DNA of 64,000 bases from Antedon mediterranea (taxonomy: Eukaryota; Animalia; Echinodermata). Both the position numbers and the translations under genes were made by a program. Each line of letters starts with the position of its first letter. Within the stretch, counting starts at the first letter, position 1. The notes below the pieces were generated by a model. That model did no database searches. It had not been told where the DNA came from and was given only the letters and a program-made list of their open reading frames with translations. The stretch lies in assembly GCF_964355755.1 (NCBI RefSeq), contig NC_092673.1, forward strand, positions 13,054,948 through 13,118,947, written 5' to 3'. Below are positions 4,661-56,770 of the stretch, piece by piece.

Positions 4661-4664
4661 CCGA

Positions 4665-15120: not shown

Positions 15121-15179
15121 GCTCTACCTCTTAAGCCTGTTTTTCTGTCAGTTTTTACAATGATTTAGTCTGAAATGAA

Positions 15180-23399: not shown

Positions 23400-24500
23400 G
23401 AAAGTGGCAAGACCATTATCAGCAGATGTTAAACCAAATAAGATTCAGACTTTCAACTACAAATAGTCATGATAAAGACCAACAAACGGATGTTAAAATT
23501 CAACAAAAACTAATTGTTAAACAGAGAGTACGTATTTCTAGACTAAAACATGGCGTACGTAAACTAAAACAAACAGTAACAAGGCCAACAGCCATAAGTC
23601 GCATGCTCTCAGAAAAAAATGAACTTTCAAAACATAATGTACTTTAAAACTTTTCTGTACATCAAAACAGTTCAAAAAGTACAGAAAAGCGATAAAACGC
23701 ATAGTGATACCGGACCGACAGACAGACCGACCGACCGACATAGTGAACTATTGAGTCGCGTCCACGCAACTAAAAAAAATAAAGGTACAAATGTTGGAAT
23801 GAACAACATTGCTAGTATTATAGGTCAGGTAAAACGATACATTAAAGAACCAGCATTATCATTTTTCTCCTTACAGCTTAAGAATTCTGAACTTCTAACA
23901 AAAGCCAGGGGTAGAAGATGGTCATACAGTAACAAGGTGTTAGCCCTGTCACACCATCAAGGCCCCAGGGCGTATGAATTTTGTAGACAAATATTCATTA
24001 TGCCTACACCTTCATCTTTACATAAATGGTTGAAAAACATCGAAATTCAACCAGGGTTCAACACCGTTCCATCTTCCGACATTACGCTTTCCACAATTTG
24101 TTTCCATTTTTGTCTGTTTATCGCAGGATGGTTTGTTATTGTGTTAGTGTCTACATGTCTTATTTGATTCATCCAGTTATTTCTTGGTCTTCCTACGGGT
24201 CATTTTACTTTCCTGTTAGTTTACTTCATTGTTTGTTTGATTGGGGTATCATCCGGTAATCTAATTATGCGTTTAATAGCCGGATTTAAAAAGAGAAGAA
24301 GAAGCTGAAGCAACCGATGTCCACAAATTCTTCCCATGTGCAGTTCTTTAATAAATAAAAGTCATGGCTGAATAATGTGAAAGCAGACACCACGAGCTGG
24401 ATGGCTATTGGCGATATCTAAACATCAGAAAAGACATAAAGTTTATGCTCACAGCAAGATTCAATCAAGATATTGTTGAAAACCTGTTTTCACAAACTTA
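23400..24500 (+). pseudogene. P-element/THAP9-type transposase remnant
   Basis: KARGRRWS..KVLAL..GPRAYEFCRQIFIMPTPSSLHKWL..IQPGF and KFMLTARFNQDIVENLF (~24438). Confidence 0.75.
23577..23775 (+). mobile_element. Short Helentron/HINE-like insert within the P-type remnant
   Basis: (gacc/gaca)n microsatellite followed by 3' hairpin agtcgcgt-cc-acgc(a/g)act and an A-run; subterminal agtcgc(a/g)t copy near the 5' end. Confidence 0.45.
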
Positions 24501-26184: not shown

Positions 26185-27391
26185 CAGACGTTCCAACCCT
26201 CCCGATTTATCCGGGAGTCTCCCGAATTTTAACATCACCTCCCGGTCTCCGAATTTTAAATATATCTCCCGATTTCACACATTTCTATAAAATTAAAATT
26301 CAGTATTATTGCATTAAATTAAAATCTATCTTCCCACGAAAGTTAATATTACAAATTAATTTAATCTCACACGTCGTACGTACCACCCCGTATGATACAA
26401 CGAACATGTATTGTAATGTATGTAAAGATTGTATAGCATAGTACAGCATACTGTAAGGCGACGTCCTTTGTGTTTACCGACAGTATGTGATTCTTACCTT
26501 TAGCGATAAAGCTACAGTATCGCTTTATCAGTAGAGTAGGTGCACGTGTACTGAAAATTTTTCCTGGTTACAAGTTTGACCTAATTCCCATGCCCAGGGA
26601 AGGCATCATCGTCAGTGTAGTAGTAGTAGTACTGTGCGACGTCCTTTGTGTTCACCGACAGTACGCGATGAATCTACAGAATCAGTAGTAGGCGCGCGTG
26701 TACTGAAATTGCTAGTTACAAGTTCTTTGACCCAATTCCAATGCCCAGGCATCGATCGTACCATCGTACAGTACTGTATGTATTATCACTGCGCATGTAC
26801 CGGAAAAGTACTTGTAGTACTGTATTTTGCGTACATACTTTCGTGAATTGCAATCAGTCGTGACATTTTCTGGTTTTACAGTATGTCGGAAAAACGTAGT
26901 AGCGTAGTTTGAGAGACTAAAGAAAGTTGTAAAAAGAAAAAATATAAAACTAGATTTTCTAATGAATGAAAAAATACGTTTCCGTTTGTTAGTGCGAGTA
27001 ATCAACACGCTACCGAGAGTGAATACAAGTTTTTTTGCACTATTTGTAACGTGAATTTGTCATGCTCACAGGGAGGAATCAACAATGTTGCTGTACACTC
27101 CAGTAAGTTGTTTGTTTTAATTTGTATTTTTGTTAATGAATTAATACAACTAAGTACAGATTTGATTTGTACTGTGAATGATTTTTTATTTAAGTGTATA
27201 CAACAATATAAAGTTAGTAAATATAGTTTGATTTATAATCACCAAACAAGTTCTTTTCTTTTTGTTTGTATTACTCTGATTTGCAAAGAGCTGTCTTAAG
27301 ATTCGTGTTGGTAGTACAGTATACTTTTATTCTTGAACGTTGGTGGCGGTATACCCTCCCGATTTTTAATTCATTTAGGTTGGAACGTCTG
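26185..27391 (+). mobile_element. Non-autonomous hAT-like element with 14-bp TIRs and 6-bp TSD
   Basis: cagacgttccaacc...ggttggaacgtctg flanked by aggatg on both sides; subterminal ctcccg repeats; internal zinc-finger exon F..EW..FPF..FFCTICNVNLSC..GG..DV..H. Confidence 0.8.
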
Positions 27392-27544
27392 AGGATGTGA
27401 CATTAAAAAAAATGGCATATTAAAAAAAAAACAAGGGGACAATACATCTTATTGCCTGGGTCTAATAATACTGTACCAAAGGAGATTACAATACCACTAC
27501 TATTAGGCCGCCTACTAATAATATTAGCCTCTAATACAAAACTA

Positions 27545-27935
27545 AAGCTTGTTTTCCATTAAATCGCTACATCATGTCGACATGTATCGCCGACAGTTGT
27601 CCCCGACTTAGGATAGTGATTTTATGGAAACGCTCGTTGTAGGGTGTCAATCTGGTACTAAACTATGCATGCATTGACACCAAAAGCACAAAAAAGGTAC
27701 GTACACACTTACGTAATTTGAAATGGCAGCAATTGCAAGACGTCAAATTTTAATTTTAAAAAATGCTTCTGCTTTTATGGAAGCAAAAAAAGCAAAACCA
27801 ATGTAAAATCAATAAAAAAAAGAAAACATCGATGTTGGGTTAGAAAAATCTACCAAGAACGTACGAAATATGGACAGTACTCGACACTATTTAGAATTCT
27901 AAAAAGTGATGACCGAGAGTACTTTTACAGGTAGC
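27545..27935 (+). pseudogene. Harbinger transposase N-terminal fragment
   Basis: HRCWVRKIYQERTKYGQYSTLF..DDREYFYR followed by a gt splice donor. Confidence 0.5.
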
Positions 27936-28029
27936 TAAGAAAGTTAGTTAGTAAGTTAGTTATCATATTATGGTTAAAATATTATATAGAGAATTCAAAA
28001 CCTAACTATTTTTAAATAAAATATCTTGA

Positions 28030-30655
28030 TATTAGATTCCAAAGCAGCATCTTAATAATGAGCAGTCCTTACAATTAGGAAGACCTGAAAATAAGGAAAT
28101 CGATGAGGCTGAGACCTGTACCCTTTTTTAGGACAATGATGAAGATCTTATAACAATCAATGACTTAAAACACTAAAAATGAAAGAGTTTTGTAAAATTG
28201 TGTTTATTCCTCAAAAGACATGAAAAGAAAATTATCATCATCAATATACGGTACTAAAATTATATTTTCAGAAGTTTAAGTAATTAAGTACAAACAAACT
28301 GCTCGTTTAATCTTTTCATAGAAATCAAAATCAATAAAGGGGATATTGAAGAGCAAAAATTTGAACTAATTGAGGCAGCTGCCAAATTAATCAATAGTAT
28401 TATTATCAATTAAGTATGTCAAAAACTACAAATAATAAGGAATACCCTTTGGATGATGAGTTAACTGTTGAAAATGGTTTGGCCTACCCAGAAGTTTGAG
28501 GATTTTTTGTAAGAAATTATTTGTTGGAAAGGAGACTGAATTAAAGGTAGCATCAATTGGCCAATCAATCATCCAAGCCGCAAGGCCTAGAGCAATTTAT
28601 AGCTCCATTTCAATTGGGCTTTGCCATACAGATGCACCACCATTTCGAATAAAAATACCTAATAAATTCTTTAAATTTACTTTTAAAATAAGTTTTGAAA
28701 TTTGAAGGAAATGCTGTCATAATTAGTATGGATAGGTTGTGTGACGTAGCGCATGATAGCTCAGTTACCTTTAATACTGACAATGTAGACCACAACATTC
28801 AGATTCAGATTCAGATAGAAAGAATACATTCCATGGAATGGGTATGATAGCATGTATCAAAAATGGAAAGGTATAAATATAACATCCGTTCCCAGAAAAA
28901 TTTTCTCAAGCAGTCAGATATCAAAAGCATCTCATGTGAAAATGGTAACCTACCATGAGTCAAGGAACATACTTAATTGTATGAAGCAGACATCCATATC
29001 TGAATGTGTTATATTTCATATTAAATTTTCCTAATGCTCAGATATTGGTACCTTGTTCGTTTGACCAAAATGCTCTGGGCTGTCGGTCACTGCCATCAAA
29101 ATCACTTGCCCATATACTGCCATGCATTCTCCACTAGAGTTTGAGGTGTACCAAAAAACTAATCATTAAATACATGTAACCTAAAAGTGCATGAACTTCC
29201 CGGGGAAACAGCTGCAGATTATACCAAACACATCTCACATATTGCAAATATTGTCTGCTAAATCAAGAATGCGGATGGAGAAGAAATTCGACAGAAAATA
29301 ATCAGATATTGCGAATACTATATAAGAGTCATTGTTAATCATGCCACCACAGCCAGCCTAAATGAAGTTTGGAATATGAGTTGAACTGCCATCTACATCC
29401 TCTGGATTCTATTTCAACTTCATGTACATCTTTAAAACAATTAAAGACAAACATAATGTAACAGGTAATAAGATAATTTTTATTTTCGTATTAAACAAGG
29501 CTAATTTTAACAGATTTTTATTTGGTTAACAAATATTAAAATGTTTTTCTTATTTTAAATTACAGGTGAGCGAATTTATGGATCAGACAGTTCTGCTGGT
29601 CAGTTGTCATTAGCCTTCACAACATTTAAAGATGGTTCAGACACCTAATATACAATGGATAAAAACACTGATCCAATTCCCATACAATACAAAACAGTGA
29701 AAGCCACATAGCAAGCCAATCTTGTGGGACAATCACAGAAAAAAATCTATGACAGTAAAGCCAACAACCAGACTACAATGGACCAATAAAGGTAAGTTAT
29801 GTTAAAACAAGAATGACATTTTGTTTTCACACCTGAACATTAAAGAATACTGTACACTTCAAGAACAGAATGTATATGTCGTAATTAATGATGAAGTTCG
29901 GTAGCTGAATGAAAATTGAAATCCGAACTTCCAATCACGGGTTAAATTTCATTCTTATCAATCTACCAAAGCTGAGGATACCAAATGGATTGGGAAAATG
30001 TTACAAGGAAAGAAACATCAGATACGCCTGCAATAGTTAAGCATATGTTTAAAGTATGTATGGATGTAACAAATATCCATCGCCAGCAGGTGCCAATATA
30101 AAGTGATGATCAACCATTTGCTATTGCAAAGCAGCTTTAATGGCAACATCTCCAGCAATTTGACGAGGACAAGATATTATAAATGATGTGAGGCCTGCAT
30201 ATTGAGCTGGCAATAAATGGTTGGGATATTGCTCTAAAATAGTTGTTGGTCAGAAACAACATCAGGAAGAGCCGAATCATTAACCTTTGCTAAGCATGTT
30301 AAGCATGCTCGGTATGCACACCAGTTTACACTTGTCTCCTTAAAGTTGAGATAACGGGAATAATGAGACTGGATATGGTTGACAAACAAAAAGGGAAAAT
30401 ATCCACAATTTTTTTTTCGGAGATTGAATGAAACTACAGATGGTCTACCTTGCTTTTGTTAGATTTTTAGTTTTATGTTAAAATCATTTTAGCTGTATGC
30501 TTTATGAATATTTTCCTTGAACCAAACTCATTACTAGCGATGGCTACCCATTCATCTGAGAGATATGGTGTAAGATATGGTATAATTATATGGGCAGAAT
30601 TCATGAATGGCAGATTCCAGCAAAACAGTTCTTAAGATGGCCTTAGATCAGGTTG
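28030..30655 (+). pseudogene. Academ-like transposase remnants interrupted by other fragments
   Basis: KVASIGQSIIQAARPR..QMHHHF, DNVDHNI..FHGMGMIA, DQP.FAIAKQL.WQ, GLHIELA, RWLPIHLRDM, KMALDQ. Confidence 0.6.
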
Positions 30656-32033
30656 GAAACTATCTATTTTGTGAAAAATAAAGTTCCATCTAGGGTATGT
30701 GGTTCAGAGTTCACACGGTGTCAGATTTCACACGCCCACCTCATAAATATTCATTTTTAAACAAACCCATCAACCAATCAAAACACTTTGCTCACTGAAC
30801 TGTAAAATTACTTCTCTGCTTCGATCGTTGATCCAAGCAGTGTACAGCAAAACTTTGAATCCAAAAAACCATATTTTGCAAGTCAAGGTAGGTACAAAAC
30901 TTGAATTTTTCTTAATTACGCAATTAGCTAACGAGTATGGGCCACGTGCAAAAGCCCAAAAAATCTAAATTTAAAGAGATATACTTGTAATTTATGATTT
31001 ATATGGTCTTTAATAACTGGCCAAACAAAAATAATTTGTTTGTCTGATGCTTACGTCATCAACCGATTGTAGGGGAGGGTGAGCGAATACCAGGCCACTA
31101 AATCCCAGTTGGGTTCAAAATTCACCCGGTTGGTGGCGCTATATACTTTTTTTATAATGTACTGGTTTTGGGTGATTAGATGCTTCTTAGCCATCTTAAT
31201 TAGGCGTTTTAACCAAATATAACTCAATAAAACCGTTTTTTATTCAATAGCTATAGTCCTAAATATTTAAAAAATTAAATAAATATAAAAATTAAATATT
31301 ATTATTATTATTTTTTTTTTATTACAAATTTATATCAAGAATTAAATCAAGAACATTAAAAAATTAGTACGTGAGGTATATTTCGGAAGCACGTGCGTGT
31401 GGGCCTGCTAACTAATGTTATTTAATTGGCATACTTAATATACATTATTGTGATAAACATTATTCAAATAATCATTAAATTTTCTTTTTTTTTAAAGGTT
31501 ATCTACAGTCATCTTTAATTTCAACAGTATTTATATTTAAATATTTACTTATAACAGTATGTGTACCGTTTATTTTATACAGAGTGTAAATTATATTTTT
31601 TAATATTTAACAATAAATATATAACATTTACGAAGAAAACATTGTTTATTACTTATCATTTTTGTTTGTTGTTATTAACAATACTGCATATCATTTGTAT
31701 TGGAATCCTTCGAACGAGTGTAGCATCAGATATTTTCCCGTGTTAGGATTGGATCGTATAAAATCAAAGATCCATTCGGACATCAGAGAAACAACATCAA
31801 TGAACATACTGATGCTGAAACATCTAAATCACTCATGTATACAATACAGATAAGTTGCTTCTTTAACCCTAAGTGTTAATTGTTTAATGCTGTTGTTTGG
31901 CATATTTATTTTTAACTGTTTTTATGTTGCGTTTTATTGTTCGATGTCATCAAGTTTATTTGTGTTTAGTACTGTATTGTGAAAAAAAAAGAGTTTAAAA
32001 AAATAAACCGTTCATCGTTATTAAACTTTAGAT

Positions 32034-41000: not shown

Positions 41001-42197
41001 ATTTTCAGACAAGCCTCCATTAAACCATGTAAAAATGTGTAAGCAGGTGAACTATGGAACCGATATAGCAACCATGACCATACACTTTTACTGAGGTCAG
41101 AGGATATACAATAAAAGGTCCAGTTAGAAATTCATGTAGTGTTTGTGAGAAAGCTGTGGCAAAAAATGCCTGCCACATTTAATGTTTTATAAGAAAATGT
41201 AGAAGCTGTATTGATGCAAGAGAAAGCATTATTTTGTTAATAATGCTTATAGAAATTAGTTGTGTATGTTTCTGGAGATTAAAAGGATAGCTTAGAGTAT
41301 TTAGTCGAATCTTCTGCACACGGAGTCTCTGAAGTAAAGATAACTGCCTGAGAACGTATTAAAGACCTTCGTCTAACGATATATGAAACGATGTTGCAAG
41401 AATCAAGCCAGTACAGACATAGTTCTCGTTGTTCAGACAAGAAGCAATATGTCTTTGAGACAATGGAAGTTAAATTATTAGATGATGAAGTTGCTTTAAA
41501 GAGAGCATCTACTTCTTGAACCTGTCAAAAGAGGGTGAACACTAGATGGAAACAGACAATAACAGACAATAACAAAGAAGTTCAACTGTTGGCATTGTAA
41601 TTGGAGAGGAGAAGGAGATAGAGAGTGTGCCAAAGTAAGAAAACAGCTGTGGTATATGCTCTGTACGAGAGATTGCGTGATCCAAATTTGTTAATATATT
41701 ATCTTGATTGAGTGAATAAATGTAATTAAATATGTGTGCATTGGGCAAAGCTCTATCAAGTGTAGGTGAACTATTGATGACAAAGTTCAAAATATTGAGC
41801 TCATATATTTCACTTTAAATGCAAATATGTAGAACATTCTGGGTTGTAGGGTAGCTATAGGTAGTAAGTGAAATGTCAAGTGATGTTTATTCGTAATTCT
41901 GGAAGGAATTTTGCTTAACCAAACCATAAAAAGGTAAGAATGGTTGTGAGTTGCCTGGCCCTACATGACAGGAGAAGAAATTGGATAGATTCTACTAAAA
42001 ACAAACAAAATTACCACTAGTATATCACTTTATTTTAGGGGAAGAGTTGATCATCAAAGTTATTTTTAATTAGCATAAGTAGACCTGACCCGGGTGGTAA
42101 ATACTTCTTTACCAAAACTAAAACATTTTTCATTTTAAATAAAATTAAAAATTACGTATTCCAAATATTTCAAATTGAGATACTTAGATTTAACTAA

Positions 42198-43304
42198 TGT
42201 AATATAATGTTGGGTTGTTGAGGTACTAATGAAAGACTCTAACTCGCTTGACTGTCGTAACACATATATTATTTATTCAGTATAATACTTCAGTACAATA
42301 TACAACTATAAGTATAGATAAGGAACGGACAATCAATGATGCTGTCGGTGAGGTGTGAAGTTTGTTAGTCTGCTTCTGGAGAAGTGGCTGTAAGGTGTGT
42401 CTCTGTGAGGTGGCTGTAAGGTGTGTCTGGGCCCTTCTGAAACTTGGGAGTATATTGGCTCAGTTCATTTGCATAATGTCATTACATCATCTGTGAGGGT
42501 AACGATTGGTCCTAAGTTGATCCAGGGGTGTTTAAGTGGGAGTGATTAACGGTATAATAAGGTATTTCTGTGATGGATGACACTTAAATAGTGTCGATCA
42601 CTCCTGGTTTAACGATGGGAAAGTCACAAAATTAAGCTAAGTGTTTTCTTTAGGGATTCTATTATAAACTAAATGGTCATTAAAACATCTGGACAAACTC
42701 TCCTTTGGACTTTCTGGGTCAAGTTTGTGAACCTATTTGAATTCCGATACAAAGGTCAATTTCTTAAATATAAAAGTATATCTTTATATCACATCCCTCT
42801 ATTTCCCTTTTTTTTTTTTCTAATCTATTTAAAATATAAAAATGGTTATAATAGTGGCATGCAAAATTAAAGTTATATAAAAGAAAAAAAACATTATTAT
42901 ACATATAAGCAAAAATTGAGTTAGCCAAAACCATTGACTCTGAAGTGTAACCTTATCACTTTCACTCTCTCTCTTCTCTCTCTTAAAAAAAATGAAATTA
43001 AAAATGAATTTGGTATAAAATTCGCGTAAATCAAACATAAATCAGTTAAAAAATAAAATTACAAAACTTAAAAATAGTATGTTACATTGAACATACATCA
43101 AATCGTGCGACACTCATCGCGTTCTAATGGTCTTCAAACATAAATCATCAAATCAAAACATAAAAATTGAGAAACTGTGGCTGATTAGCCTAAAATCAAA
43201 TATCAAACTTAATCACTTAAAACTTTAAAGGAAACAAATGTGTGTGTCCCGTTGACACAAACTTATCCACAATATATCGTTATCGTCACAACTTTATCGA
43301 TTTA
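42198..43304 (+). repeat. Left inverted arm: segment T (42198-43023) joined directly to segment B (43024-43304)
   Basis: T is the reverse complement of 51823-52649; B is the reverse complement of 50185-50457. Confidence 0.93.
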
Positions 43305-43702
43305 AGCATTTATATTTACAGGTAATTACGATTTCAATCGGTCGGCAAATTCGACTTTTGTACTCAATGTCAAAAAAAATTACAATTAAAAGTACTAAGA
43401 AAATCTCCTGTTATTGTATATCAATTAATTAATGCTTGAGATTAACGACTCAAAGGTTAAACAAAATATTTGTTACAAAATGATTGTCGTTCTTTTCAAT
43501 ATCTCAATATATCGATCATCAAAATTCAAAATTAATCATTATCAAAAAACTCGTTACAAAATCAATTCTTAAACATAAATTCAATTCTCTTTTAACTGAA
43601 ATCACATCATTACTAAACAAATCTCATCAAATACGTAGACTATGCTATCATTAATTTAGCAAATGTCGTAATTTAAAAATAATCTTGCAAAAAAAATTTA
43701 AA

Positions 43703-45617
43703 TCAGTAATTCGTTGCATTATACAAGCGTTTTATGAATCGTTTTGGCGATCCACTTATCGGTATCTGTTTATCATTAATGATCTCTTTAATCAATTTAT
43801 CTGTATCGTTATATCTGTCAATATTCCACCAAAATTTGCGATCATTAGATTCGTGTTTTGTTTTATCAGTGTTGCGTTTGGCTGAAGTCGGTTTAGAATA
43901 CGAAACTAAAACTTGGAAATGTCCTGCTTTAAATCTACCTCGGTTTAATGTCATAATTGAATCATTAGGTGCTGTCATAATTAGATTAGTTTGTTCCTTG
44001 ATTTGTTCTTCTTTCATTTGGAATGGGGCTGCTAATCCCATGTTATTCTCTACACAGTCAATGTAAGGTTGCAAGTTAAGGGGTTCTACTTTAGTTGGAT
44101 GTGTAAGGGTATCTGATTGCAATTGGGTGGGTGTCCTATCATGTTCGTCTACAAATTCAACATTGGTTTCGTCATTTACTACATTAATGGTGTTTTGGAT
44201 TTTCTCGTTATTATCATCAGTGGGTTCATTCAACAATTGTTTAAGTTTTTGGAGATGTGTAAAATTTTTGCGTTCTTTGGGTGTTCTCATAAAACAGGGT
44301 TTCAGTCTGTTATAATTGAATACGTCGCGAAGTATTTCTCCTTTAATCGTCGCTAGGATGTAGTGTGTTCTGTCTAGTACTTCATGAATCACTAATGGTC
44401 CGACCCATTCTGCGGCGATTTTCTTTGAATTTGCCGTTAGTGATGATGATGTTGGCTTGTATAAATATACGAGTTGTCCTACTGAGCAAATTGGACATTT
44501 TTCTAAGCGTTGGGAAATTTTTGAGTTTTGGACGTTTTGTTGTGTTCGCTGTAATTGTAGCATTGTCTGTGAAATGTTTTGAAATTTCTTCTTGAGATGT
44601 TCAAAGTATTCTTCATAGGAATGAGACAATCCTGAAATAGGGTTAAATGCTAATGAGGTCAAACTTGGAGGTTGGCGGCCAAAAACTAATTCGTAAGGGG
44701 AGTGGTTTCCTAGATGTGGGGATGAAAACGAGTTATAAGCATAACATGTTGTTGATACAAATCTAACCCAATCTGTTCCGAATTGGTTAAGGTTGACCTT
44801 TAACAGGTCCGATACGGTGCGGATATGACGTTCAACTTGTAAACTACCGTGATTGTGGACGCTGATGATTTTCCTATCAATATTAAGGGTGTTACATAAT
44901 AGTGTTAATAATTTTCCTGTAAGGGAGGTTGCTGCATCTGAAATAAGACGAGATGGTGGGGGTCCAAAAATACTGATGACCTTTTGAATTAGTGCTTCAC
45001 AAATTGTTTCGGCATCAATGGATTTCAAAGGTACACAAATCAAAAATCTAGTTATCTCATCACATACTACCATAATATGTTTAAAACCTGAAGGTGATGT
45101 TGGCATACTCTTAAAATCTAGACTGAGTGTATGAAAGGGACGGTAAGTTGCTGGTACTCGATCGTGTAAAGGACGTAATTTATCGGTTTTGGGACGAAAT
45201 TGTTGACATCTAAGACACGCTTGGGTATAATTGTTGACTTTCTCGAACATAAGGCATGTAAAATAATTTCCTAATAGTAAGGTAAGTACGCATCGTACCT
45301 TGGTGGCTACTTAACAAATTGTCGTGATACTGAGAAATAATAGTCTCTGCTAAGTTTTCAGGAACAGCTAATTGCAATACAAATTCTCCACCTTTATCTT
45401 GGAAAAATAAACGGAATAGTAAACCGTTGCACAATATGTACTGCTCTGACTTATTCTGAACTGCACGAGCTGCTTTCTTATCAGCTGGAAGGATATCATG
45501 AACTAAATAATCGTAAACTGGCTTAAAAAATGGTGAAGTTTCTTGTTCAACACGTAATTGTTTAACATCTACTGGGAGGTTATAATCTCTAATTATCTTT
45601 CTTTGAATAACATCCAT
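43703..45617 (-). pseudogene. pol: Gypsy-type DDE integrase (HHCC zinc finger, catalytic core, GPY/F-like motif, long C-terminal tail); frameshift near 45250
   Basis: YHDNLLSSHQG..ACLRCQ; LSLDF..VVCDEITRF..LISDAA..QVERHIRT; SPYELVFGR; WVGPLVI. Confidence 0.92.
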
Positions 45618-45625
45618 TAATCTAT

Positions 45626-46246
45626 CTAAGTCTTGTTTTTTGGGATGTGTGCTGACTTAAATTCAGTTATGTTGGGTACTAGTGGTTTGGGCGATGTATA
45701 CAATTCAACTGGTACGTTTCGATGTGTAGTGTCTTTGCTTTGCTTATTTTTGTCTACTAGTCGTTCCTCTGGAGGTTGTCGAATGTTTACATTACGTATT
45801 GGGGGTGGCGTTACGATAGGTGGCGTTATGATAGGCGGTGATCGATGTGCGTTTGTTTGTTGTCTCGTGATTATCTGTGGTGTAGCGGTAGGTTGAGGTG
45901 TAGGTCGCGTGTTTGTTGTCACTGGATTTTGATTAATGACGGGCGTTTGTACTGGTTTGGGTTTATGTAGGTCAGGTATATTTATTCCCATTTTCTTGGC
46001 GTATGACCTTGTTACTGGTCTGCTAGTAGATGTGTTTGTAATCGGGTTAAGAGATTCAGTCTCTGTAATATTAAATGCAATGGGTACAACTTGATCAATT
46101 TCGGAATCGTCGTCACGAGGGGCTCGGGAGAGAAAATCTGCTAAAACTAATTCAGTTCCTTTCTTATAACCAATTTGGAAAATGTATCCGGACAATCGTA
46201 ATATTAGTTTCTGTAGACTGATCTTTTGAATTCCAAATTTGTACAA
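45626..46246 (-). pseudogene. pol: RNase H C-terminus plus Pro/Thr-rich linker of pol (frameshifted on both sides)
   Basis: LQKLILRLSGYIFQIGYKKG..LADFLSR, RPVTRS, then a P/T-rich tract. Confidence 0.85.
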
Positions 46247-48398
46247 TTGCTGAGTGGTCTACGAATGCATCAAATTCGCAACCCTTTAGTAAGTGTCGAA
46301 ATGCTGAAACGTTAATGTAAAGTCCAAATAACTCTAGTTCTGTGACGCTATATCGTTGACAGGCTTGTGGTAAGATTTTGGAATAATAACCTATTATGTG
46401 TTCTTTACCGTTTACTGTTTGTGTTAAATATGAACCTGTTGCGGTTCTTGAAGTGTCGCTATATAGCGTAAATCTACCTTCTTTTCTAGGCATTTGAAGA
46501 GTTGGTGGTTTAACCATTAATTGTTTAATTTCGTCAAATGCTTTCTGGTGTTCAGTAGACCAACAAAATTTTCGGCGTTTGCTTGCGAGTGTGTGTAACG
46601 GACGTAAAATTGATTGTATTTGAGGGAAAAAATGGGATACATAATTTACTGCACCAATAAGTCGTTTAGTTTCTATATGGGTTCGTGGGACTGGCAAATT
46701 TCGGATAGCTGCACACCTGTCGCCTAATGGTGTGATACATGCGTGTCCTGAAGAATTAATCAGGATGGTGTGTCCCATATATTGCACTTTATTCTTGAAT
46801 AACTTACATTTCTTTGGACAAATTCTAAAACCATTTAATTGTAGGGCTTGTAAAACGGAAACGAGGTGCTGCTTATGAGCAAATTTGTCTTGGCTAAATA
46901 AAATAATATCATCATGATGGGCGATACAGAATTCTCTAGAATTTGGGATTTCATTTAAAATTTCGTCAATCTTTGCTCGAAATATACCTGGTGAAACGTT
47001 TAATCCTTGTGCTAATCTCTTATAATAATAATGTTTTCCACCATGATATGAAGCTATACCTGTATATTGTTGGGCATGTTCGGTTAATGGTACACAGTGG
47101 AACGCTGATTTCAAATCAATTACGCTAAGAATCTGTGCATTAGCGTTACCTATTGTTTTCAAAGTTTCGGCTAATAATGGGAATGGGTGATTAATACGTT
47201 TTATCCTGGAATTTAGATAGCGAAAGTCTGTGACAACTCTTTTATCTTTTGAATTTTTCTTTGAAACAAGAAGGACAGGGGAAGTATACGATTGGTGTCC
47301 TACTGCTAAGATTCCTAGTTTGACTAATTTGTTCAATTCGGCCTCAATAACATGTTTGTCTTTGTCTGTCGCGAAGTATGGTCGAATAAAAAATGGTTCA
47401 TTGTTAGAGAGGTGTATGTCAGCTTTGAAGTTTGGGCAGCTAGATAGTTCACCATAAAGTGAAAATGCGTTTCTGTTTTGTTGTAAGGTTTTATACAAAT
47501 CTTCTTTTTCTCTATGTGTTAAAACGCTGTCTGTTAAATCAACTTGTTTTCTAATTATTTCTTCCTCGGTTAAAGATAGCAATGGGTCTGTACGTTCTAA
47601 ATGTGGGTACTTGTTTGCGTTGTCATTGGTCAACTTTATTCTATCAATTGGTAGGTCGTTAGTAACTGTTACAAGGTTGGTTAAGTGAAGGCTCGCGATA
47701 GGTTGATGTGTATTTAGAGATACGTTTCTGTTTGTGTTGTTAGTGATATCAATGTTGGTTTCTCCTCTATGTAATTTTACTAACATGTCTGATGGACAAA
47801 GTTTTGAAATATGGGTGGTTGCATGTAGAACAACATCAGAATTGCGTACGAAGGCGGGAACCCTTCCTTTTAATTTAACTGTTTTAGTATCACCGTGTTT
47901 AAGAAAAATCTTGTGTACTGGACAAAAGCTAAAAATCTTTGGTCTAATGCGAAATGTGTTTTCCTTAAAATTTAAAGTACCGTCGAGTTCAGACAATGTT
48001 TCGGTTCCAAGTATCAGGTCGATACCTGTCAAATTTTTAACGATTAATGCTGAAATTTTAAATTTGTGTCCTTGGATAAATAATTCGAATTGCACTAAGT
48101 GGTTGGCATATAAGAAGTCACCGTTACCTAATCGAAGTTTGGTTGTGTTCACTTTAACTGGCTTTAAACGCGATAAATAAAGTGAGGAATTAACGTACGA
48201 TTGTGAGATTATAGTTCTAGTTGAACCACTGTCAAATAAAGTTAAAACATTTCTACCATCTGGTAAATTTCCTTTAACGTAATTTCTGTCGTTAAGTAAC
48301 AAATCAATATTATCTGAGTTCCCTAAGTATTTTGCCTTAAAATTGTCGTATTTAGTATGGGGGGCCAGATTATAGGCGGCATCTAGTCCCCTTTTTAA
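46164..48398 (-). CDS. pol: Pol: aspartic protease, reverse transcriptase, RNase H
   Basis: LFDSGS (protease); RVVTDFRYLN, IDLKSAFH, LAQGLNVSP, AHHDDII (RT); LYSDTS, YSVTELE, FVDHSA (RNase H); frame open from the gag stop region. Confidence 0.95.
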   Translation of the reverse strand, partial: LKRGLDAAYNLAPHTKYDNFKAKYLGNSDNIDLLLNDRNYVKGNLPDGRNVLTLFDSGSTRTIISQSYVNSSLYLSRLKPVKVNTTKLRLGNGDFLYANHLVQFELFIQGHKFKISALIVKNLTGIDLILGTETLSELDGTLNFKENTFRIRPKIFSFCPVHKIFLKHGDTKTVKLKGRVPAFVRNSDVVLHATTHISKLCPSDMLVKLHRGETNIDITNNTNRNVSLNTHQPIASLHLTNLVTVTNDLPIDRIKLTNDNANKYPHLERTDPLLSLTEEEIIRKQVDLTDSVLTHREKEDLYKTLQQNRNAFSLYGELSSCPNFKADIHLSNNEPFFIRPYFATDKDKHVIEAELNKLVKLGILAVGHQSYTSPVLLVSKKNSKDKRVVTDFRYLNSRIKRINHPFPLLAETLKTIGNANAQILSVIDLKSAFHCVPLTEHAQQYTGIASYHGGKHYYYKRLAQGLNVSPGIFRAKIDEILNEIPNSREFCIAHHDDIILFSQDKFAHKQHLVSVLQALQLNGFRICPKKCKLFKNKVQYMGHTILINSSGHACITPLGDRCAAIRNLPVPRTHIETKRLIGAVNYVSHFFPQIQSILRPLHTLASKRRKFCWSTEHQKAFDEIKQLMVKPPTLQMPRKEGRFTLYSDTSRTATGSYLTQTVNGKEHIIGYYSKILPQACQRYSVTELELFGLYINVSAFRHLLKGCEFDAFVDHSAIVQIWNSKDQSTETNITIVRIHFPNWL

Positions 48399-48404
48399 AA
48401 ATCC
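48360..48404 (-). promoter_or_regulatory. Putative -1 ribosomal frameshift signal between gag and pol
   Basis: Minus strand G GAT TTT TAA, then GGGGACTAGAT-loop-ATCTGGCCCCC hairpin 6 nt downstream; pol is in the -1 frame and open from this point. Confidence 0.75.
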
Positions 48405-49360
48405 TGCTGGTGGCTAGGGTAGTAATTGTTTGACTGTTGGTATGGGTATGGCGGGGGATAGTTTCCGTAAGAGCGGTTTTGTTGTCGGCAGTGCCTTGCT
48501 ATGTGGCCTGGTTTCCCGCAGTAATAACAGGTTGGGGGAGGTTGTCTATATCTTGGGGTCGGTGGGGTCTGGAATCGGGGTTTGTATGGGCTTGGGCTTC
48601 GGTTTCGTCTTGGGATATAATTTCGGGTGGGGGAACGTGAGCGTCGAGTATCATCATTAAGGGATCGTTTTGTTGTGGCCATGTCTAACTTGAGAGAATT
48701 TATCTCATGTTGGAGCGATTCGAGACTATTAGGCCTATCTGTTTCCTTATTGATATTGAATGAAACTTCCCGTGTGGCATCATCTACGGAAAGGTCAAGG
48801 TAATTTTGTGTGCTATTTACAATATTTTCAATAGTGGCATCGATTGGGGTGGACATGGCTACAGCTGCTCTACATTTTGGTGGAAGGGTCGAAATAAATT
48901 TATTCTTTATCTGCTGGTCAGCGTATCCAATTCTGTCTGCGGCTTGTTTGATTTTGGTTAAGTGCTTTTCGGCGTTGTCGCCAGTGGTGTATGTAATTGA
49001 ATCGTATTCTCTTATGTGCGCATAGATTGATTTGTTTTTACTAAACCTGTTGATGAATTGGGTTTTTAAGGATTCTAGTGAATCGAACTGCTTTCCCTCA
49101 ATCCAGAGTCTAGCTTGGCCCTGAAGGCTACGTTTAAAAATACTTATTACATTAATTAATTGGGCATTGTTTACAGGGTTTTCTAAAGTGTGGGCCTCAA
49201 GGTAGTCGGTAAACGATAAGTAGTGTGCACTACATTGGTCGTGATCGGTTATGGAACCGTCATATCTTTTGGGAAGGAAATCGGTTTGTCTTAGGTGGGG
49301 CACGGGGTGAGGATTGACGGGCTCATTTAAAATTACTTCGTTATCAACAACGTCGACCAT
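48395..49360 (-). CDS. gag: Gag with CCHC zinc knuckle
   Basis: 321 aa, uninterrupted; FKRSLQGQARLW..LKTQFINRF capsid-like motif; RS/P-rich linker; CYYCGKPGHIARHC. Confidence 0.93.
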   Translation of the reverse strand: MVDVVDNEVILNEPVNPHPVPHLRQTDFLPKRYDGSITDHDQCSAHYLSFTDYLEAHTLENPVNNAQLINVISIFKRSLQGQARLWIEGKQFDSLESLKTQFINRFSKNKSIYAHIREYDSITYTTGDNAEKHLTKIKQAADRIGYADQQIKNKFISTLPPKCRAAVAMSTPIDATIENIVNSTQNYLDLSVDDATREVSFNINKETDRPNSLESLQHEINSLKLDMATTKRSLNDDTRRSRSPTRNYIPRRNRSPSPYKPRFQTPPTPRYRQPPPTCYYCGKPGHIARHCRQQNRSYGNYPPPYPYQQSNNYYPSHQQDF

Positions 49361-49692
49361 ACTTTATAATATTAATTATTAATCAAATATCAAAAACAAT
49401 TTAGTGTATATGTAAACTCTCACTTTTTCAATAAAGGTTACAAATCAAGATTCGAAATGGTTTCGACTTACCCCAAATGCTTCGGATCCAATTAAAATGA
49501 ATTAAAAGAATGCAAAAGTGTTCAAAAATGTTTAAATGTTCAAACAACGAATTAAAAAAAATGCGAAAGGTGTTCATCAATGTTCAAAAAAGTAAATGTT
49601 AAAAAAAACGATCGAAAAAAAAACGGCGTGAAGTTGAAAGTCTCTAAACGAAACAGTTCTTGTCCGCTTGCTTCTGTTTTGATTCTTCTTGG

Positions 49693-49899
49693 GTCTTCCT
49701 CGATTATCTTCTTTGTCTTTATCCAATGGTTATAATTTCATAAAATTTCTGCTTGTCTCGATTTCATTCAAATATATAATTTCAGCTTGTCTTTTGTGTC
49801 TTCCTCGATTATCTTCTTTGTCTTCATCCAATGGTAATAATTTGATAAAATTTCTGCTTGTCTCGATCTCATTCAAATATAATTTCAGCTTGTCTTTTG
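49693..49899. repeat. Tandem duplication (~105 bp x2) in the gag leader
   Basis: gtcttcctcgattatcttctttgtct... at 49693 and 49798. Confidence 0.9.
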
Positions 49900-50011
49900 A
49901 GTCAAAGTAAATTTCTCTCCTTTCAAACAAATGTGGTTATTTTTGTCTTTGTCTTCGTCTTCGTGTCTTGTTAAGTGTTTATTTCTTGTTTTCTCACTCC
50001 GTTCCTTATGA

Positions 50012-50029
50012 AATTTGGGTCTTCCACCA
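50012..50029 (-). promoter_or_regulatory. Candidate primer-binding site
   Basis: TGGTGGAAGACCC.. immediately follows ..TATATTACA on the gag-sense strand; TGG is complementary to tRNA 3' CCA. Confidence 0.7.
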
Positions 50030-50184
50030 TGTAATATAATGTTTGGTTGTTGAGGTACTAATGAAAGACTCTAACTCGCTTGACTGTCGTAACACATATA
50101 TTATTTATTCAGTATAATACTTCAGTACAATATACAACTATAAGTATAGATAAGGAACGGACGGTCAATGATTGATGCTGTCAG
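50030..50184 (+). repeat. Internal direct copy (segment A, R/U5-like) of the left terminus 42198-~42348
   Basis: tgtaatataatgtt.ggttgttgaggtactaatgaaagactctaactcgc...taaggaacggac; contains AATAAA on the gag-sense strand. Confidence 0.95.
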
Positions 50185-50457
50185 TAAATCGATAAAGTTG
50201 TGACGATAATGATATATTGTGGATAAGTTTGTGTCAACGGGACACACACATTTGTTTCTTTAAAGTTTTAAGTGATTAAGTTTGATATTTTGATTTTAGG
50301 CTAATCAGCCACAGTTTTCTTGAGTTTTATGTTTTGATTTGATGATTTATATTTGAAGGCCATTAGAACGCGATAAGTTGTCGCGCTATTTGATATATAT
50401 TCATTGTACATATTCTCTAAGTTCTTTAAATTTGACCAATTGACGTTTGATTAACGC
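50185..50457 (-). repeat. Segment B of the right arm (inverted copy of 43024-43304)
   Basis: taaatcgataaagttgtgacgataa.. pairs with ..ttatcgtcacaactttatcgattta; more diverged distally (gtttgattaacgc vs gcgtaaatcaaac). Confidence 0.9.
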
Positions 50458-50722
50458 TCGAGGGAGGAGTAGAGCCAATTACGAGCTATATATATAAACA
50501 ACCGGATGAGCAGACTATAAATAAGTCGCACGAGCGTATCAAATATACAGTATTTACTGTCGAATTATAAGTTAATTTACTTTTGTGAGATTGTTATAAT
50601 AGTTGAACTTGAAATTTTATTGTTTGAGTTTTATATCGTTTATTTAGTTTAATATTGTTTATTTTAAATACATTTTAATTTTATTTATCTTAATTTTAGT
50701 CAATTCCAAATTTCCCCCTAAA

Positions 50723-51598
50723 ATGGAATCCGAAAAGCTTGACGTTACACAGTTATGCTTAAAACACAAAATTCAAATGACGCCCCTGTCCACAGAATGT
50801 GCCCTTATAAAGAAGATAATCCTTTACCAAAGCGAACAAAACGTAATTCTCCATATTACCAAAATGATGCCATTTACTTTAGATTCCTTGAAAAGAGTTT
50901 TATTATTCCTTTGCGACATCCGTCCAGCAGACCAACTGACAAACCTCAAATTAAATACCCTTTTACACATTGGCAGTTATTTATGTTGTTTCGACAAAAT
51001 GTCCTCCCCCATTATAGACTACATTTGGAAGCATAAGAGTGAACCAGCCCTACTTGACTTTTCCACAATCGACCTTTCCATTAATCTAGACGGCATCGCC
51101 ACTTGTATACCAAACACACATGAATTTCACAGAAAACATATTTATTCTATGACCCTCCTGCTCTTAGCAATTACAAAAGACATCAAAGCCCCACAATGCA
51201 CAACATTTTTTTCAAGAGTCCGACAACAAACAGGCATCATACCCCAAGACGAATTAAAACCTAGCGAACACTCACCATTTGGATATGTTGTAACTAAATA
51301 TAAGAAAAAACTATATTCGCACATTCGTAACATGCAGTACCTGGAAAATAAATACCAAGATACCCCCTGCCAAATTTGTCAATGTAACCCCGAAATTAAA
51401 AACTTTCATACTGATTGTACAATCAACAAATGCTGCGGAACATTGTTTCACAAAAATTGCCAACAAATAAACAAGAAATACCAATGCTTGAATTGCGGTA
51501 TGGTATATTTGAATGAGATGCCTTACACTGCTACCTACATATTGGACGACGGCACACTGTGGACTACATCCCATTATTATCGATTATTATATGATTGA
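50723..51598 (+). CDS. Accessory ORF antisense to gag-pol; C-terminal RING/PHD-like Cys/His cluster, possible BTB-like N-terminus
   Basis: Uninterrupted 291 aa; CQIC..KCCGTLFHKNC..CLNC; upstream TATAAA (50517) and cagt (~50548). Confidence 0.75.
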   Translation: MESEKLDVTQLCLKHKIQMTPLSTECALIKKIILYQSEQNVILHITKMMPFTLDSLKRVLLFLCDIRPADQLTNLKLNTLLHIGSYLCCFDKMSSPIIDYIWKHKSEPALLDFSTIDLSINLDGIATCIPNTHEFHRKHIYSMTLLLLAITKDIKAPQCTTFFSRVRQQTGIIPQDELKPSEHSPFGYVVTKYKKKLYSHIRNMQYLENKYQDTPCQICQCNPEIKNFHTDCTINKCCGTLFHKNCQQINKKYQCLNCGMVYLNEMPYTATYILDDGTLWTTSHYYRLLYD

Positions 51599-51822
51599 TT
51601 TCAATTTATCCTTTATAAATTTTTTTTCTATTTCAAATAATTAACGAGAGTCGACTTCTTGACCGATGTTTTTTAGGGAAACCCAACCGTTGTGATGTTT
51701 ATATTTCGGTAATCCGAGTGTAGCATGCCTCCAAAGCAACGGACCCACAATTATGTCGATCTTGAAGAACACTTTTGTTTTTTTTATATACATTTTTTGT
51801 TTCAAATTTTATATAAATTCTG

Positions 51823-52649
51823 GAATTTTTATACCAAATTCATTTTTAATTTCATTTTTTTTAAGAGAGAGAAGAGAGAGAGTGAAAGTGATAAGGTTAC
51901 ACTTCAGAGTCAATGGTTTTGGCTAACTCAATTTTTGCATATATGTATAATGTTTTTTTTTTCTTTTATATAACTTTAATTTTGCATGCCACTATTATAA
52001 CCATTTTTATATGTTAAATAGATTAAAAAAAAAAAAAAAGGGAAATAGAGGGATGTGATATAAAGATATACATTTATATTTAAGAAATTGACCTTTGTAT
52101 CGGAATTCAAATAGGTTCACAAACTTGACCCAGAAAGTCCAAAGGAGAGTTTGTCCAGATGTTTTAATGACCATTTAGTTTATAATAGAATCCCTAAAGA
52201 AAACACTTAGCTTAATTTTGTGACTTTCCCATCGTTAAACCAGGAGTGATCGACACTATTTAAGTACAGATTTGACAGTGTCATCCATCACAGAAATACC
52301 TTATTATACCGTTAATCACTCCCACTTAAACACCCCTGGATCAACTTAGGACCAATCGTTACCCTCACAGATGATGTAATGACATTATGCAAATGAACTG
52401 AGCCAATATACTCCCAAGTTTCAGAAGGGCCCAGACACACCTTACAGCCACCTCACGGAGCACACACCTCACAGCAGACCTACACACTTCACACCTCACT
52501 GACAGCATCATCGAATGTCCGTTCCTTATGTATACTTATAGTTGTATATTGTACTGAAGTATTATACTGAATAAATAATATATGTGTTACGACAGTCAAG
52601 CGAGTCAGAGTCCTTCATTAGTACCTCAACAACCCAACATTATATTACA
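51823..52649 (-). repeat. Right terminal inverted repeat (segment T)
   Basis: Reverse complement of 42198-43023 with a few substitutions, an ~11-bp indel near 52267 and a diverged patch at ~52455-52520. Confidence 0.95.
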
Positions 52650-52670
52650 CTAATGATGCCTAATGCCAGT

Positions 52671-54552
52671 TAGTCAGGTGGCTTAACAACAAAAAATGAG
52701 GAAATCGTTACACGGTGGACAAAAGCGCCAAATTTGGCATGGAGCTTCGTTGGGACCTACCAATTGATTTTTGCCTAGGAGCCACTCTGGTCGCAATTTA
52801 TTTTTCAAGATGGCGGCCAAAATCCAAAATGGCCGCCAATATATTGGAAAATCACATTTAATTTGTTACAGAAGTCACATATAGGCAAATGAACTATCAA
52901 AACATAAGTATTCATGGTCATTAAAACATATTTTAGACATGTTGCATAAAATGGGTCATTCGTTGTTAAGATGGTGGCTAAAATCCAACATGGCTGCCAG
53001 TAGCCTAAACTGGAATATCATTCTCTGGTTGCAGAAATCGCATATATCAAACGAAGTAGGAAAACACATGGAGTAGGCCTAATCATGGTCATTGAAACAT
53101 ATTTTAGACATGGTACATAATATAGGTCACTCGTTGCAAAGATGGTGGGAAAAATCCAAAATGGCTGCCAGTAAACTAGGAAATCACATACAGTATCTGT
53201 GGACGGCAGAAGTAATATGTAAATGAAGTAGCTGTAGTAAATGGTAGAGGTGGTATGTAAATTACAAGTAACTGTAAAAAAATCTATAAAAAAAAGTTAT
53301 AACCAGTTCAGTTTCTGAAACCACATAAAATGTGGTATTTTTGGGAAAATAAAGATTGAGGGCGCTGTTCACATAAGTAAAAGTACACTTTTCTACCTGT
53401 AACTAACTAAGTTTTTGTCAGAACATTTGTTAAATGGTCTTATTTGATAGATAATTACATTTTCTTTATATTAAAGAAAACAAATTTTACATTAAATATC
53501 CATAGTTCAGATAAATTTACGTTAAGTGCCTAAAATCAGCAAATATAACACATTTTAATACATAACAAATACTATTGGATGTTAGCAAATTACAAATTTA
53601 GTTATCATAAATAGGATTCTTTTACATTTTCATAGAAACTGTTTTATTATAAAACATATAAATATATATTTATCTAACAATTTCTCATAAAAAAACTTTT
53701 ACGACCACTAGTTTTCGAGATATAGAAATGTGTACTTCCAGTACAGGTCAAAGGTCAATAACAAGAATCTGGGTCATTTTCTTGGAAAAGTTTGTATTAG
53801 ACTGAATAGAAACATCCATCTTCTGATTAATTTGAGACCTATTTAAAGTTTGTCCAACTGTTAGGTACCACGTTATATGACATAGGTCAAAGGTCAAAAA
53901 TACCAAAAATCATACTTCCGGCCATTTTTTGACAAATTTTTCCATTAGGACGAATATTAATATGCATCTTCCAAATAATTTGACACTAAAATTATTTAAT
54001 TTAATGTAAGCGTTTAGGAGATATGGTTATTTTGTTTTCAATTGGATTAAAATATTCAAATTGAGGTCAAAGGTCAAAGAAAAACATTAGAAATTTGATA
54101 ACATGGGTTTTTATAACTAGCATGGTTAAAAAATTCATAAAATGCAATCCTTGGACTTTCCTTCTGATTTGCAGACTAAAATACATTAGGAATGGACTAT
54201 TTGTGACTTTGTATACGATTATATATGTATTTCAATTTCAATGGCTACCACTTTAAATTTTGGGCGCCATCTTGGAACTCATTTTATATAATATTTCCTG
54301 AATTGGTTTTACTGACTTCAGAAATTCTTGATTCAGTACATTATTTGTCTATTTGTAACTTTTACAGCCAGAGATATATGATATACCAATTTACTGGCAG
54401 CCATTTTGGATTTTGGCCGCCATCTTGGAAAATCGGAAGCTGATCGGGTGGCTCCTAGGCAAAAATCAATTAGTACGTCTAAAAGAAGCCTCATGCAAAA
54501 TTTGGTGCTTTTGTCCAACTTGTAACGTTTTAGTCGCTAAGCCACCTGACTA
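52671..54552. mobile_element. Non-autonomous DNA transposon, probably Academ (TAG termini, 3-bp TSD)
   Basis: tagtcaggtggctta...taagccacctgacta, imperfect TIR of at least 170 bp; agt duplicated at 52668-52670 and 54553-54555; empty site cc-agt-aggcc at ~22311. Confidence 0.85.
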
Positions 54553-55649: not shown

Positions 55650-56770
55650 AAGTGGCAAGACCATTATCAGCAGATGTTAAACCAAATAAGATTCAGACTT
55701 TCAACTACAAATAGTCATGATAAAGACCAACAAACGGATGTTAAAATTCAACAAAAACTAATTGTTAAACAGAGAGTACGTATTTCTAGACTAAAACACG
55801 GCGTACGTAAACTAAAACAAACCGTAACAAGGCCAACTGCCATAAGTCGCGTGCTCTCAGAAAAAAATGAACTTTCAAAACATAATGTACTTTAAAACTT
55901 TTCTGTACATCAAAACAGTTAAAAAAGTACATAAAAGCGATAAAACGCATAGTGATACCGGACCGACAGACAGACCGACCGACATAGTGAACTATTGAGT
56001 CGCGTCCACGCGACTAAAAAAAATAAAGGTACAAATGTTGCAATGAACAACATTGCTAGTATTATAGGTCAGGTAAAACGATACATTAAAGAACCAGCAT
56101 TGTCATTTTTCTCCTTACAGCTTAAGAATTCTGAACTTCTAACAAAAGCCAGGGGTAGAAGATGGTCATACAGTAACAAGGTGTTAGCCCTGTCACACCA
56201 TCAAGGCCCCAGGGCGTATGAATTTTGTAGACAAATATTCATTATGCCTACACCTTCATCTTTACATAAATGGTTGAAAAACATCGAAATTCAACCAGGG
56301 TTCAACACCGTTCCATCTTCCGACATTACGCTTTCCACAATTTGTTTCCATTTTTGTCTGTTTATCGCAGGATGGTTTGTTATTGTGTTAATGTCTACAT
56401 GTCTTATTTGATTCATCCAGTTATTTCTTGGTCTTCCTACGGGTCATTTTACTTTCCTGTTTAGTTTACTTCATTGTTTGTTTGATTGGGGTATCATCCG
56501 GTAATCTAATTATGCGTTTAATAGCCGGATTTAAAAAGAGAAGAAGAAGCTGAAGCGACCGATGTCCACAAATTCTTCCCATGTGCAGTTCTTTAATAAA
56601 TAAAAGTCATGGCTGAATAATGTGAAAGCAGACACCACGAGCTGGATGGCTATTGGTGATATCTTGCTTGTTAGAGCTATGGGCAGACCTAAACATCAGA
56701 AAAGACATAAAGTTTATGCTCACAGCAAGATTCAATCAAGATATTGTTGAAAACCTGTTTTCACAAACTT
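55650..56770 (+). pseudogene. P-element/THAP9-type transposase remnant (duplicate of 23400-24500)
   Basis: ORF 55995-56411 nearly identical to 23619-24167. Confidence 0.75.

Follow-up and report, generated by a model that had tools for sequence, protein, structure and literature searches.

It is established that Gypsy elements can carry extra genes. In the bdelloid Ty3/Gypsy elements Vesta and Juno the third open reading frame (ORF3) is not env but codes for a GDSL esterase or a DEDDy exonuclease, as described in the accessible part of PMC5408684, the main text of which contains neither 'RING' nor 'zinc'. Plant Gypsy elements (Grande with gene23, RIRE2 and Retand) have additional ORFs in sense as well as in antisense, and the antisense ones follow pol and precede the 3' LTR in elements whose LTRs are direct (PMC7264820, accessible part). 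Inverted terminal repeats are known from DIRS-1, together with an internal complementary region and a tyrosine recombinase (PMC7192593, accessible part), and the reverse transcriptase motifs IADD, VADD and LADD are known from Kuafuorterviruses and Troyka (PMC11673190, accessible part), a 3-bp duplication being named in the title of the Troyka reference. In the literature searched, no paper was found in which an extra gene of a Gypsy element is RING-like, and RING is not mentioned in the main text, as far as accessible, of PMC13524379 and PMC11728184. Searches of openly accessible paper listings for Gypsy elements with inverted LTRs or a head-to-head arrangement returned only DIRS-1 or unrelated papers.

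The Gypsy insertion described here lies in a window of 64,000 nucleotides from the echinoderm Antedon mediterranea (contig NC_092673.1, positions 13,054,948 to 13,118,947). It spans 42198-52649, begins with TGTAAT, ends with ATTACA and has CTAA on both sides, and an uninserted duplicate of the flank near 22300, inside the same window, provides the empty site with a single CTAA. Besides gag and pol it contains an ORF of 291 amino acids on the opposite strand, referred to below as the cargo. The best overall explanation, to which we give a probability of roughly 0.5, is that the cargo is a sense ORF3 with a RING-like finger that was caught in a head-to-head fusion before integration.

Like the genes of Vesta and Juno, the cargo is a family-specific extra Gypsy gene and not a fusion protein (PMC5408684, accessible part), and a related element, L001, has a GDSL-like ORF after pol; unlike them, the cargo falls into no known family and has a Cys/His finger at its end. 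With the plant antisense ORFs it shares the orientation opposite to gag-pol, a promoter of its own (a candidate one here) and a lack of database similarity (PMC7264820, accessible part), but it is located upstream of the primer-binding site (PBS) and in sense to its own polypurine tract (PPT) and LTR. The inverted terminal repeats and the internal copy of terminal sequence resemble DIRS-1 (PMC7192593, accessible part), whereas the present element has a DDE integrase, a PBS, a PPT and a 4-bp target duplication; no tyrosine recombinase was found among its ORFs, the integrase domain rve is present and there is no other coding-strand ORF of at least 100 aa. The Gypsy-like gag-PR-RT-RH-INT order in marine invertebrates and a motif other than YXDD are shared with Kuafuorterviruses and Troyka, from which the element differs by HHDD and by the 4-bp duplication (PMC11673190, accessible part). 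The catalytic motif is VHDD in the relative L003, and no paper on HHDD or VHDD was found in the literature searched.

The window as a whole contains a tandem segmental duplication (15668-31752 and 35931-64000, 96-98% identical), and the Gypsy insertion and one DNA transposon are present in the second duplicate but absent from the first, leaving empty sites. The features of the insertion are listed in Table 1.

Table 1. Features of the Gypsy insertion and its target site, in positions of the window.
Feature	Position	Strand	Basis
Left target-site duplication CTAA	42194..42197	.	Single CTAA in duplicate near 22300
3' LTR of gag-pol half, 596 nt	42198..42793	-	TGTGATATAA...TTATATTACA
Polypurine tract, gag-pol half	42794..42820	-	Same motif type precedes LTR of relative L004
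Post-pol segment B, first copy	43023..43304	-	Joined straight to downstream untranslated part, without cargo
pol (protease, RT with HHDD, RNase H, integrase)	43703..48413	-	Four pieces, three breaks
gag with CCHC zinc knuckle	48395..49363	-	ORF and domain match
Primer-binding-site-like TGGTGGAAGACCC	50017..50029	-	Directly adjoins LTR end
5' LTR remnant, 156 nt, R-U5-sized	50030..50185	-	Head-to-head junction at 50185
Post-pol segment B, second copy	50185..50458	+	Inverted relative to first copy, 90% identical
Cargo segment	50459..51822	+	Exactly what gag-pol half lacks
Candidate internal promoter	50516..50551	+	TATAAATA and CAGT
Possible leader intron, putative, near chance	50585..50699	+	GTGAG...TTTTAG
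Cargo ORF P0001	50723..51598	+	ATG to stop, 291 aa: N-terminal 210 aa predicted as helical, followed by Cys/His cluster and short tail
C4HC3-like cluster	51368..51496	+	Residues 216-258
Polypurine tract, cargo half	52025..52053	+	Precedes LTR start 52054
LTR of cargo half, 596 nt	52054..52649	+	AATAAA at 52570
Right target-site duplication CTAA	52650..52653	.	Matches left CTAA

Self-comparison of the element gave a long inverted pair (42195-43020 and 51827-52652, 94%), a second inverted pair formed by segment B (43055-43304 and 50185-50433, 90%) and, for the terminal 156 nt, a third copy next to the PBS-like TGGTGGAAGACCC (50030-50185). Inside each long repeat an A-run and GGGAAATAGAGGGA are followed by TGTGATATAA, at 52054 on the plus strand and at 42793 on the minus strand, and TGTGATATAA matches the U5 end TGTAATATAA in inverted form at 9 of 10 positions. 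The supposed 'TIRs' are a pair of 596-nt LTRs in opposite orientations, each behind a polypurine tract, and what the preliminary description took for a right TIR is one of these LTRs. PPT and TGTGATATAA in both halves are, judged from the sequence, the signals of ordinary direct-LTR replication. A true inverted-terminal-repeat family regenerated by fold-back was dropped in view of the PPT-LTR starts at 52054 and 42793 and of two ends that are not copies of each other. A purine run at 51863, considered as a PPT, was superseded by the tracts listed in Table 1.

In the gag-pol half the order is R-U5 remnant, PBS, gag, pol, B, PPT and LTR, and in the cargo half, which runs in the opposite direction, it is B, cargo, PPT and LTR. 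Within its own half the cargo is thus in sense between the post-pol segment and the PPT, which is the usual slot of ORF3 or env, and the gag-pol half is without cargo and has its 5' LTR reduced to an R-U5-sized piece. The limits previously given for the gene region (50458-51822) coincide with the segment that is absent from the other half. Its designation as antisense holds for the present copy, but this orientation probably results from a rearrangement, given that the gene runs in the same direction as the PPT and LTR of its own half; the cargo is probably antisense here because a cargo-bearing 3' half was fused head to head with a cargo-less element before integration. The Ty3/Gypsy assignment is based on the zinc knuckle of gag, the pol order (protease, RT, RNase H, integrase), the TG...CA LTR, a PBS-like site at the LTR end, a PPT before the 3' LTR and a short target duplication; in place of direct LTRs the present copy has inverted LTRs and a 156-nt direct remnant. 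No match was found in an Rfam search. The 5' leader of the element contains a 117-nt tandem duplication (49684-49903), and duplications are also present in the leader of the relative L003.

That the cargo is normally a sense ORF3 of an ordinary Ty3/Gypsy family and the present copy a one-off fusion appears likely to us. The LTRs of the two halves differ by 11 substitutions and 30 gap columns, which are unevenly distributed, the B copies differ by 10%, and over about 143 sites the remnant has 3 differences from the left LTR and 7 from the right LTR. The cargo differs from the main contig at 1 of 796 letters in sequencing run X1, which may be the source sample, and at 2 of 737 letters in run X5. 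Given these differences, the two halves look like two parents. Two cDNAs, each with one good U5 end and one faulty end, would have been joined, one of them having stopped at the 5' end of the genomic RNA. A head-to-head fusion of this kind makes two U5 ends available to integrase, which would have used both. The remnant starts with ACTGAC (after CCTC), which in the full LTR lies upstream of the AATAAA and 152 nt away from the end, and this is a plausible RNA start. A product of two U5-type ends, integrated with a clean 4-bp target duplication and with the empty site preserved in the window, would show, as is seldom possible, how integrase deals with aberrant cDNA, and it also warns that on such elements TIR-like ends are open to misreading.

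A clean target duplication fits a regular mechanism equally well as an accident. The inverted, ambisense layout with two U5 ends could be the regular replicating form of cargo-bearing copies, with a gene that is truly antisense and located upstream of the PBS, and the clean CTAA duplication with its empty site, a junction at the plausible RNA start (ACTGAC after CCTC) and a cargo depth that in four runs amounts to a comparably minor share of gag depth (depth not being copy number) all agree with it. We nevertheless consider this improbable, given that the conserved PPT and U3 end in both halves would be idle, that the poly(A) signal of the remnant at 50104 would cut a long upstream transcript, that one contig of run X10 extends from internal sequence well into B and that the relative L004 has an ordinary layout. 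Moreover, retroviral replication as established would regenerate direct LTRs from the fused layout and drop the cargo, so that the cargo copies of the family are more likely ordinary. No full-length canonical cargo-bearing copy was seen among the short contigs, which do not phase across repeats. If the layout were regular, it would represent a mode of replication that is new for a retroelement with an integrase, and it would be of far greater interest.

Parts of the stretch were present in 11 sequencing runs from six studies, and contigs were compared for 6 of these 11. Five runs were from organism A (0.88-0.92 of words), three from organism B, one from organism C and two from others with small shares, and the cargo ORF was present in A, B and C. 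One 796-nt contig of depth 786 covers most of the ORF in X1, next to minor variant contigs of depth 17-71, a pattern which suggests many near-identical cargo copies. Contigs bridging from B into the cargo segment were found in all three organisms (X1 record 5; X6 record 27, with 34 letters only; X10 record 11), and the junction from internal sequence to B appeared as loose ends in X5, X6 and X10 (runs of organisms A, B and C, respectively). A further cargo-less junction was present in X6, at 51637. The depth of the cargo was about 1/4 to 1/3 of that of gag in X1, X5 and X6, where depth is not copy number. This ratio would also fit a cargo that resides on a non-autonomous satellite (LTR-PBS-B-cargo-PPT-LTR, without gag-pol) and is co-packaged with autonomous elements that have no cargo, the window then representing a helper-satellite fusion; the cargo-less B junction in the window, another such junction in organism B (at the loose end 51637) and the lack of a pol-cargo link among the contigs listed point the same way. 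A simpler account of these data is that ORF3 was deleted several times independently in a single parent, and the relative L001 carries its extra ORF on the gag-pol molecule, which makes a satellite distinctly unlikely. In a separate observation, record 6 of X1 (at 50357-50634) is a 1032-nt contig in which B and the cargo promoter are followed by some 750 nt of different sequence, which may be another cargo with this promoter in front of it.

The uninterrupted 291-aa ORF and the three pol lesions that had been described were both recovered. The stop-free frame around the ORF is 316 codons long, compared with a maximum of 192 codons in 1000 shuffles of 50434-51826, and the length of the ORF is thus far beyond chance. 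The base composition of its coding strand (A 0.36, G 0.13) matches that of gag and pol (A 0.35-0.36, G 0.15-0.16). Its intactness beside the broken pol, to which significance had been attached, is uninformative because at the pol lesion rate the 876-nt ORF would stay unbroken with a probability of 0.57. The view that the protein is not env-like was sustained: a hydropathy scan gave no membrane segment (best 19-residue window 1.11), and by this measure the signal peptide and membrane anchor of an env-like ORF3 were not found.

Comparison of dN/dS across copies, as the preliminary description had proposed, indicated weak purifying selection. Among the 40 of 88 cargo differences listed for organisms B and C, 15 were synonymous, 24 non-synonymous and 1 nonsense, corresponding to an omega of 0.45-0.65 with p = 0.01-0.13 depending on transition bias (nonsense counted as non-synonymous). 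Among the listed differences the ratio of synonymous to non-synonymous was 11 to 10 in residues 1-210 (p about 0.01, with the split chosen post hoc), 1 to 4 in residues 211-261 and 3 to 10 in the tail (residues 262-291). For gag the ratio was 10 to 6 over all 16 differences listed and not significantly different from that of the cargo (p = 0.14). The 12 of 17 indels listed formed six clusters, 5/6 of which were in frame (p = 0.018 at a null of one third). The candidate zinc ligands were unchanged in all 40 listed differences, few changes being expected there anyway.

In organism B, codon 77 is a stop codon in one subfamily (depth 192/315 in X6 and 921/1333 in X7), and in the same runs a one-base deletion occurs at 51304 and unrelated sequence follows after 51354. 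Given that this subfamily is abundant, the cargo may be dispensable in cis. The protein would act in trans, in which case cargo-less copies would benefit too. The high depth of the stop-carrying subfamily and an overall omega that, with a higher transition bias, cannot be clearly distinguished from 1 (p = 0.13 at kappa 4) could also be expected for a decaying passenger without current function. The in-frame indels, the synonymous excess in residues 1-210, the near-identical intact sequence in two studies of organism A and the base composition matching gag and pol argue against such a passenger, which we regard as quite improbable. The cargo is an accessory gene of no known family that is modestly constrained, and very probably a genuine gene of the element that is kept by selection.

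The cargo would be expressed from an internal TATA promoter and polyadenylated in the LTR. The proposed TATAAA is present at 50516 (previously placed at 50517) and the CAGT downstream of it at 50548. TATAAA alone is near chance in the AT-rich leader (2 occurrences, p = 0.09), and the combination of TATA and CAGT at the right distance had p = 0.006 for a pair picked post hoc. The acceptor-like stretch before the ATG is represented by ...TTTTAG at 50699, whereas a strict pyrimidine-tract acceptor pattern gave 0 matches in the leader; the GTGAG donor was at chance level (p = 0.30), and contigs of X5, a sample only guessed to be RNA, had no joint at the possible intron, which is an indication in neither direction. 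The suggested AATAAA exists, located in the LTR behind the polypurine tract instead of in a TIR.

The C-terminal part of the protein has the cysteine pattern C216-x2-C219, C232, C237C238-x4-H243-x2-C246-x8-C255-x2-C258, so that residues 216-258 form an eight-ligand C4HC3-like cluster, which fits a loose pattern written for it. We consider a zinc-binding cross-brace finger probable. The RING/PHD resemblance noted earlier holds for the cysteine pattern, with weak RING-like leads, and does not extend to the canonical forms: four canonical RING/PHD patterns gave 0 matches in the protein. Neither the order and spacing of RING-HC and RING-H2 (C3HC4 and C3H2C3) nor the core spacing of RING-CH/RINGv (C-x-C-x7-H) was found; the order of PHD fingers (C4HC3, at least 12 residues before the last pair) is present with a last loop of 8. 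In the broad sense of eight suitably spaced Cys/His ligands, the cluster would qualify as a RING-like cross-brace finger. It shares ligand order and a short last loop with other C4HC3 RING-like fingers (RINGv, FANCL_C and the C-terminal finger of RH_dom) and with small RINGs of giant viruses, but differs from these in that canonical spacings and significant sequence or structure matches were not found. Active RING ligases have a proline after the seventh ligand and a basic 'linchpin' after the eighth, and both were absent from the cargo finger.

Three weak leads point to a RING-like finger. The Pfam family RH_dom matched with E = 0.16 for the whole protein and E = 0.0011 for an 87-aa piece, at 19.4 bits compared with a cut-off of 28.1 and over the last third of the profile only (positions 133-202 of 206). 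Atlas ESM features of residues 180-268 gave four RING-clan proteins and three small giant-virus proteins among the seven matches listed, all at 0.76-0.78, which is below 0.9 and a level often reached by shuffled proteins. In the Foldseek comparison proposed earlier, the top viral match was a RING-type protein (E = 0.057, TM 0.24, query model pLDDT 45). All three leads are under the thresholds of the tools and not independent of the cysteine spacing, which alone they may reflect.

The N-terminal BTB/POZ resemblance was not borne out: no Pfam match to the BTB clan was obtained with the whole protein, residues 1-206 or residues 40-106, and a BTB-labelled viral Foldseek match (E = 1.3, TM 0.17) was taken as noise. 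Fold searches are uninformative on BTB because the model has a pLDDT of 45. This model, built from the single sequence (mean pLDDT 45), shows nothing but helix up to residue 210, a second model had pLDDT 34, the finger region had pLDDT 25-33 in both and a two-strand hairpin was predicted for the tail. Fold searches with the first model gave generic helical matches only (best E = 0.3 in Foldseek PDB, best Z = 6.0 in VIA).

With a helical partner-binding region and a RING-like finger, the cargo product would have a host protein as its target and might be a ubiquitin ligase. E3 ligase activity of the predicted finger is a tentative proposal to which we give clearly less than an even chance, and counter-silencing as the purpose of the cargo, as suggested earlier, is doubtful. 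PHD fingers are characterized by the C4HC3 order, an F before the H and an aromatic residue two positions before the seventh ligand. The cargo finger shares these traits, and among Pfam families it matches RH_dom best (positions 133-202 of the 206 in the profile), so that it might instead be a binding module, either a chromatin reader of PHD type or an eroded C-terminal fragment of a Rubicon-homology (Rab7-binding) domain from the host. The last loop of 8 residues is shorter than the PHD pattern allows, the first 126 positions of RH_dom are unmatched with a score below the cut-off, and solved RH or PHD structures gave no match at E up to 10; a pure binding module seems to us rather unlikely. 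Retroviral accessory proteins destroy host restriction factors, and if the finger is a ligase, the cargo would be a parallel to them in an invertebrate retrotransposon, with a substrate that would indicate an anti-transposon defence not yet known. That cargo members of this marine-invertebrate Gypsy lineage regularly replicate as ambisense elements with two U5 ends, assembled head to head from a gag-pol cDNA and an accessory-gene cDNA, and, at the same time, encode a RING-like ubiquitin ligase that represents a new family and eliminates a restriction factor of the host is very improbable.

Relatives of the cargo protein were not found with phmmer among 1.84 billion cluster representatives (0 relatives), with a word-indexed search (258 candidates, 0 at E<=0.001) or with the Atlas whole-protein search (no usable match, recognition score 3020). 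PHROGs gave no match, NCBIfam only E>=0.11 and tblastn against the relatives L001-L005 a best E of 0.31, and cargo patterns were confirmed in 0/3 matches in viral and 0/42 in metagenome contigs. SspA/GST-like proteins among PDB sequences (best E = 0.03) were taken as chance matches. Neither a 24-nt pattern from segment B nor the integrase alignment gave a match in viral or prokaryote contigs. The captured or virus-like origin suggested earlier received no support from these searches, which gave no homologue of the cargo in viruses or hosts.

Among the 18 and 120 pol matches listed, the named near relatives were from Patella and Apostichopus (59-67% identity), which indicates a marine-invertebrate lineage. 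The relative L004 has the ordinary order pol, PPT, TGT...ACA LTR, PBS and gag; in L004 the stretch 4643-8932 consists of pol, 1.9 kb, PPT, a 298-nt LTR, PBS and gag, and represents either two tandem copies with one LTR in common or a collapse in the assembly. The relative L001 (integrase 53% identical) has a GDSL/SGNH-like ORF (5217-5807) in sense right after pol, with E = 1.1e-5 that is below the curated cut-off, and a 43-nt tandem array precedes this ORF. Given that it occupies the same slot, the lineage appears to swap cargo.

Several other repeats were observed in the window. A 1.9-kb insertion at 52671-54552, 21 nt from the end of the Gypsy element, has long imperfect inverted repeats with the ends TAGTCAGGTGGC.../...GCCACCTGACTA and an apparent 3-bp duplication of AGT, and its TAG ends presumably recall elements of the Academ type. 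An ORF piece at 55956-56411, with a duplicate near 23712, matches the HTH domain of P-element transposase (Pfam E = 6.6e-6). The 1.3-kb element at 14194-15487 has inverted arms of about 280 nt that are 82% identical and is probably a non-autonomous DNA transposon, and a tandem array of about 10 copies of a 62-nt unit is located at 8403-9260.
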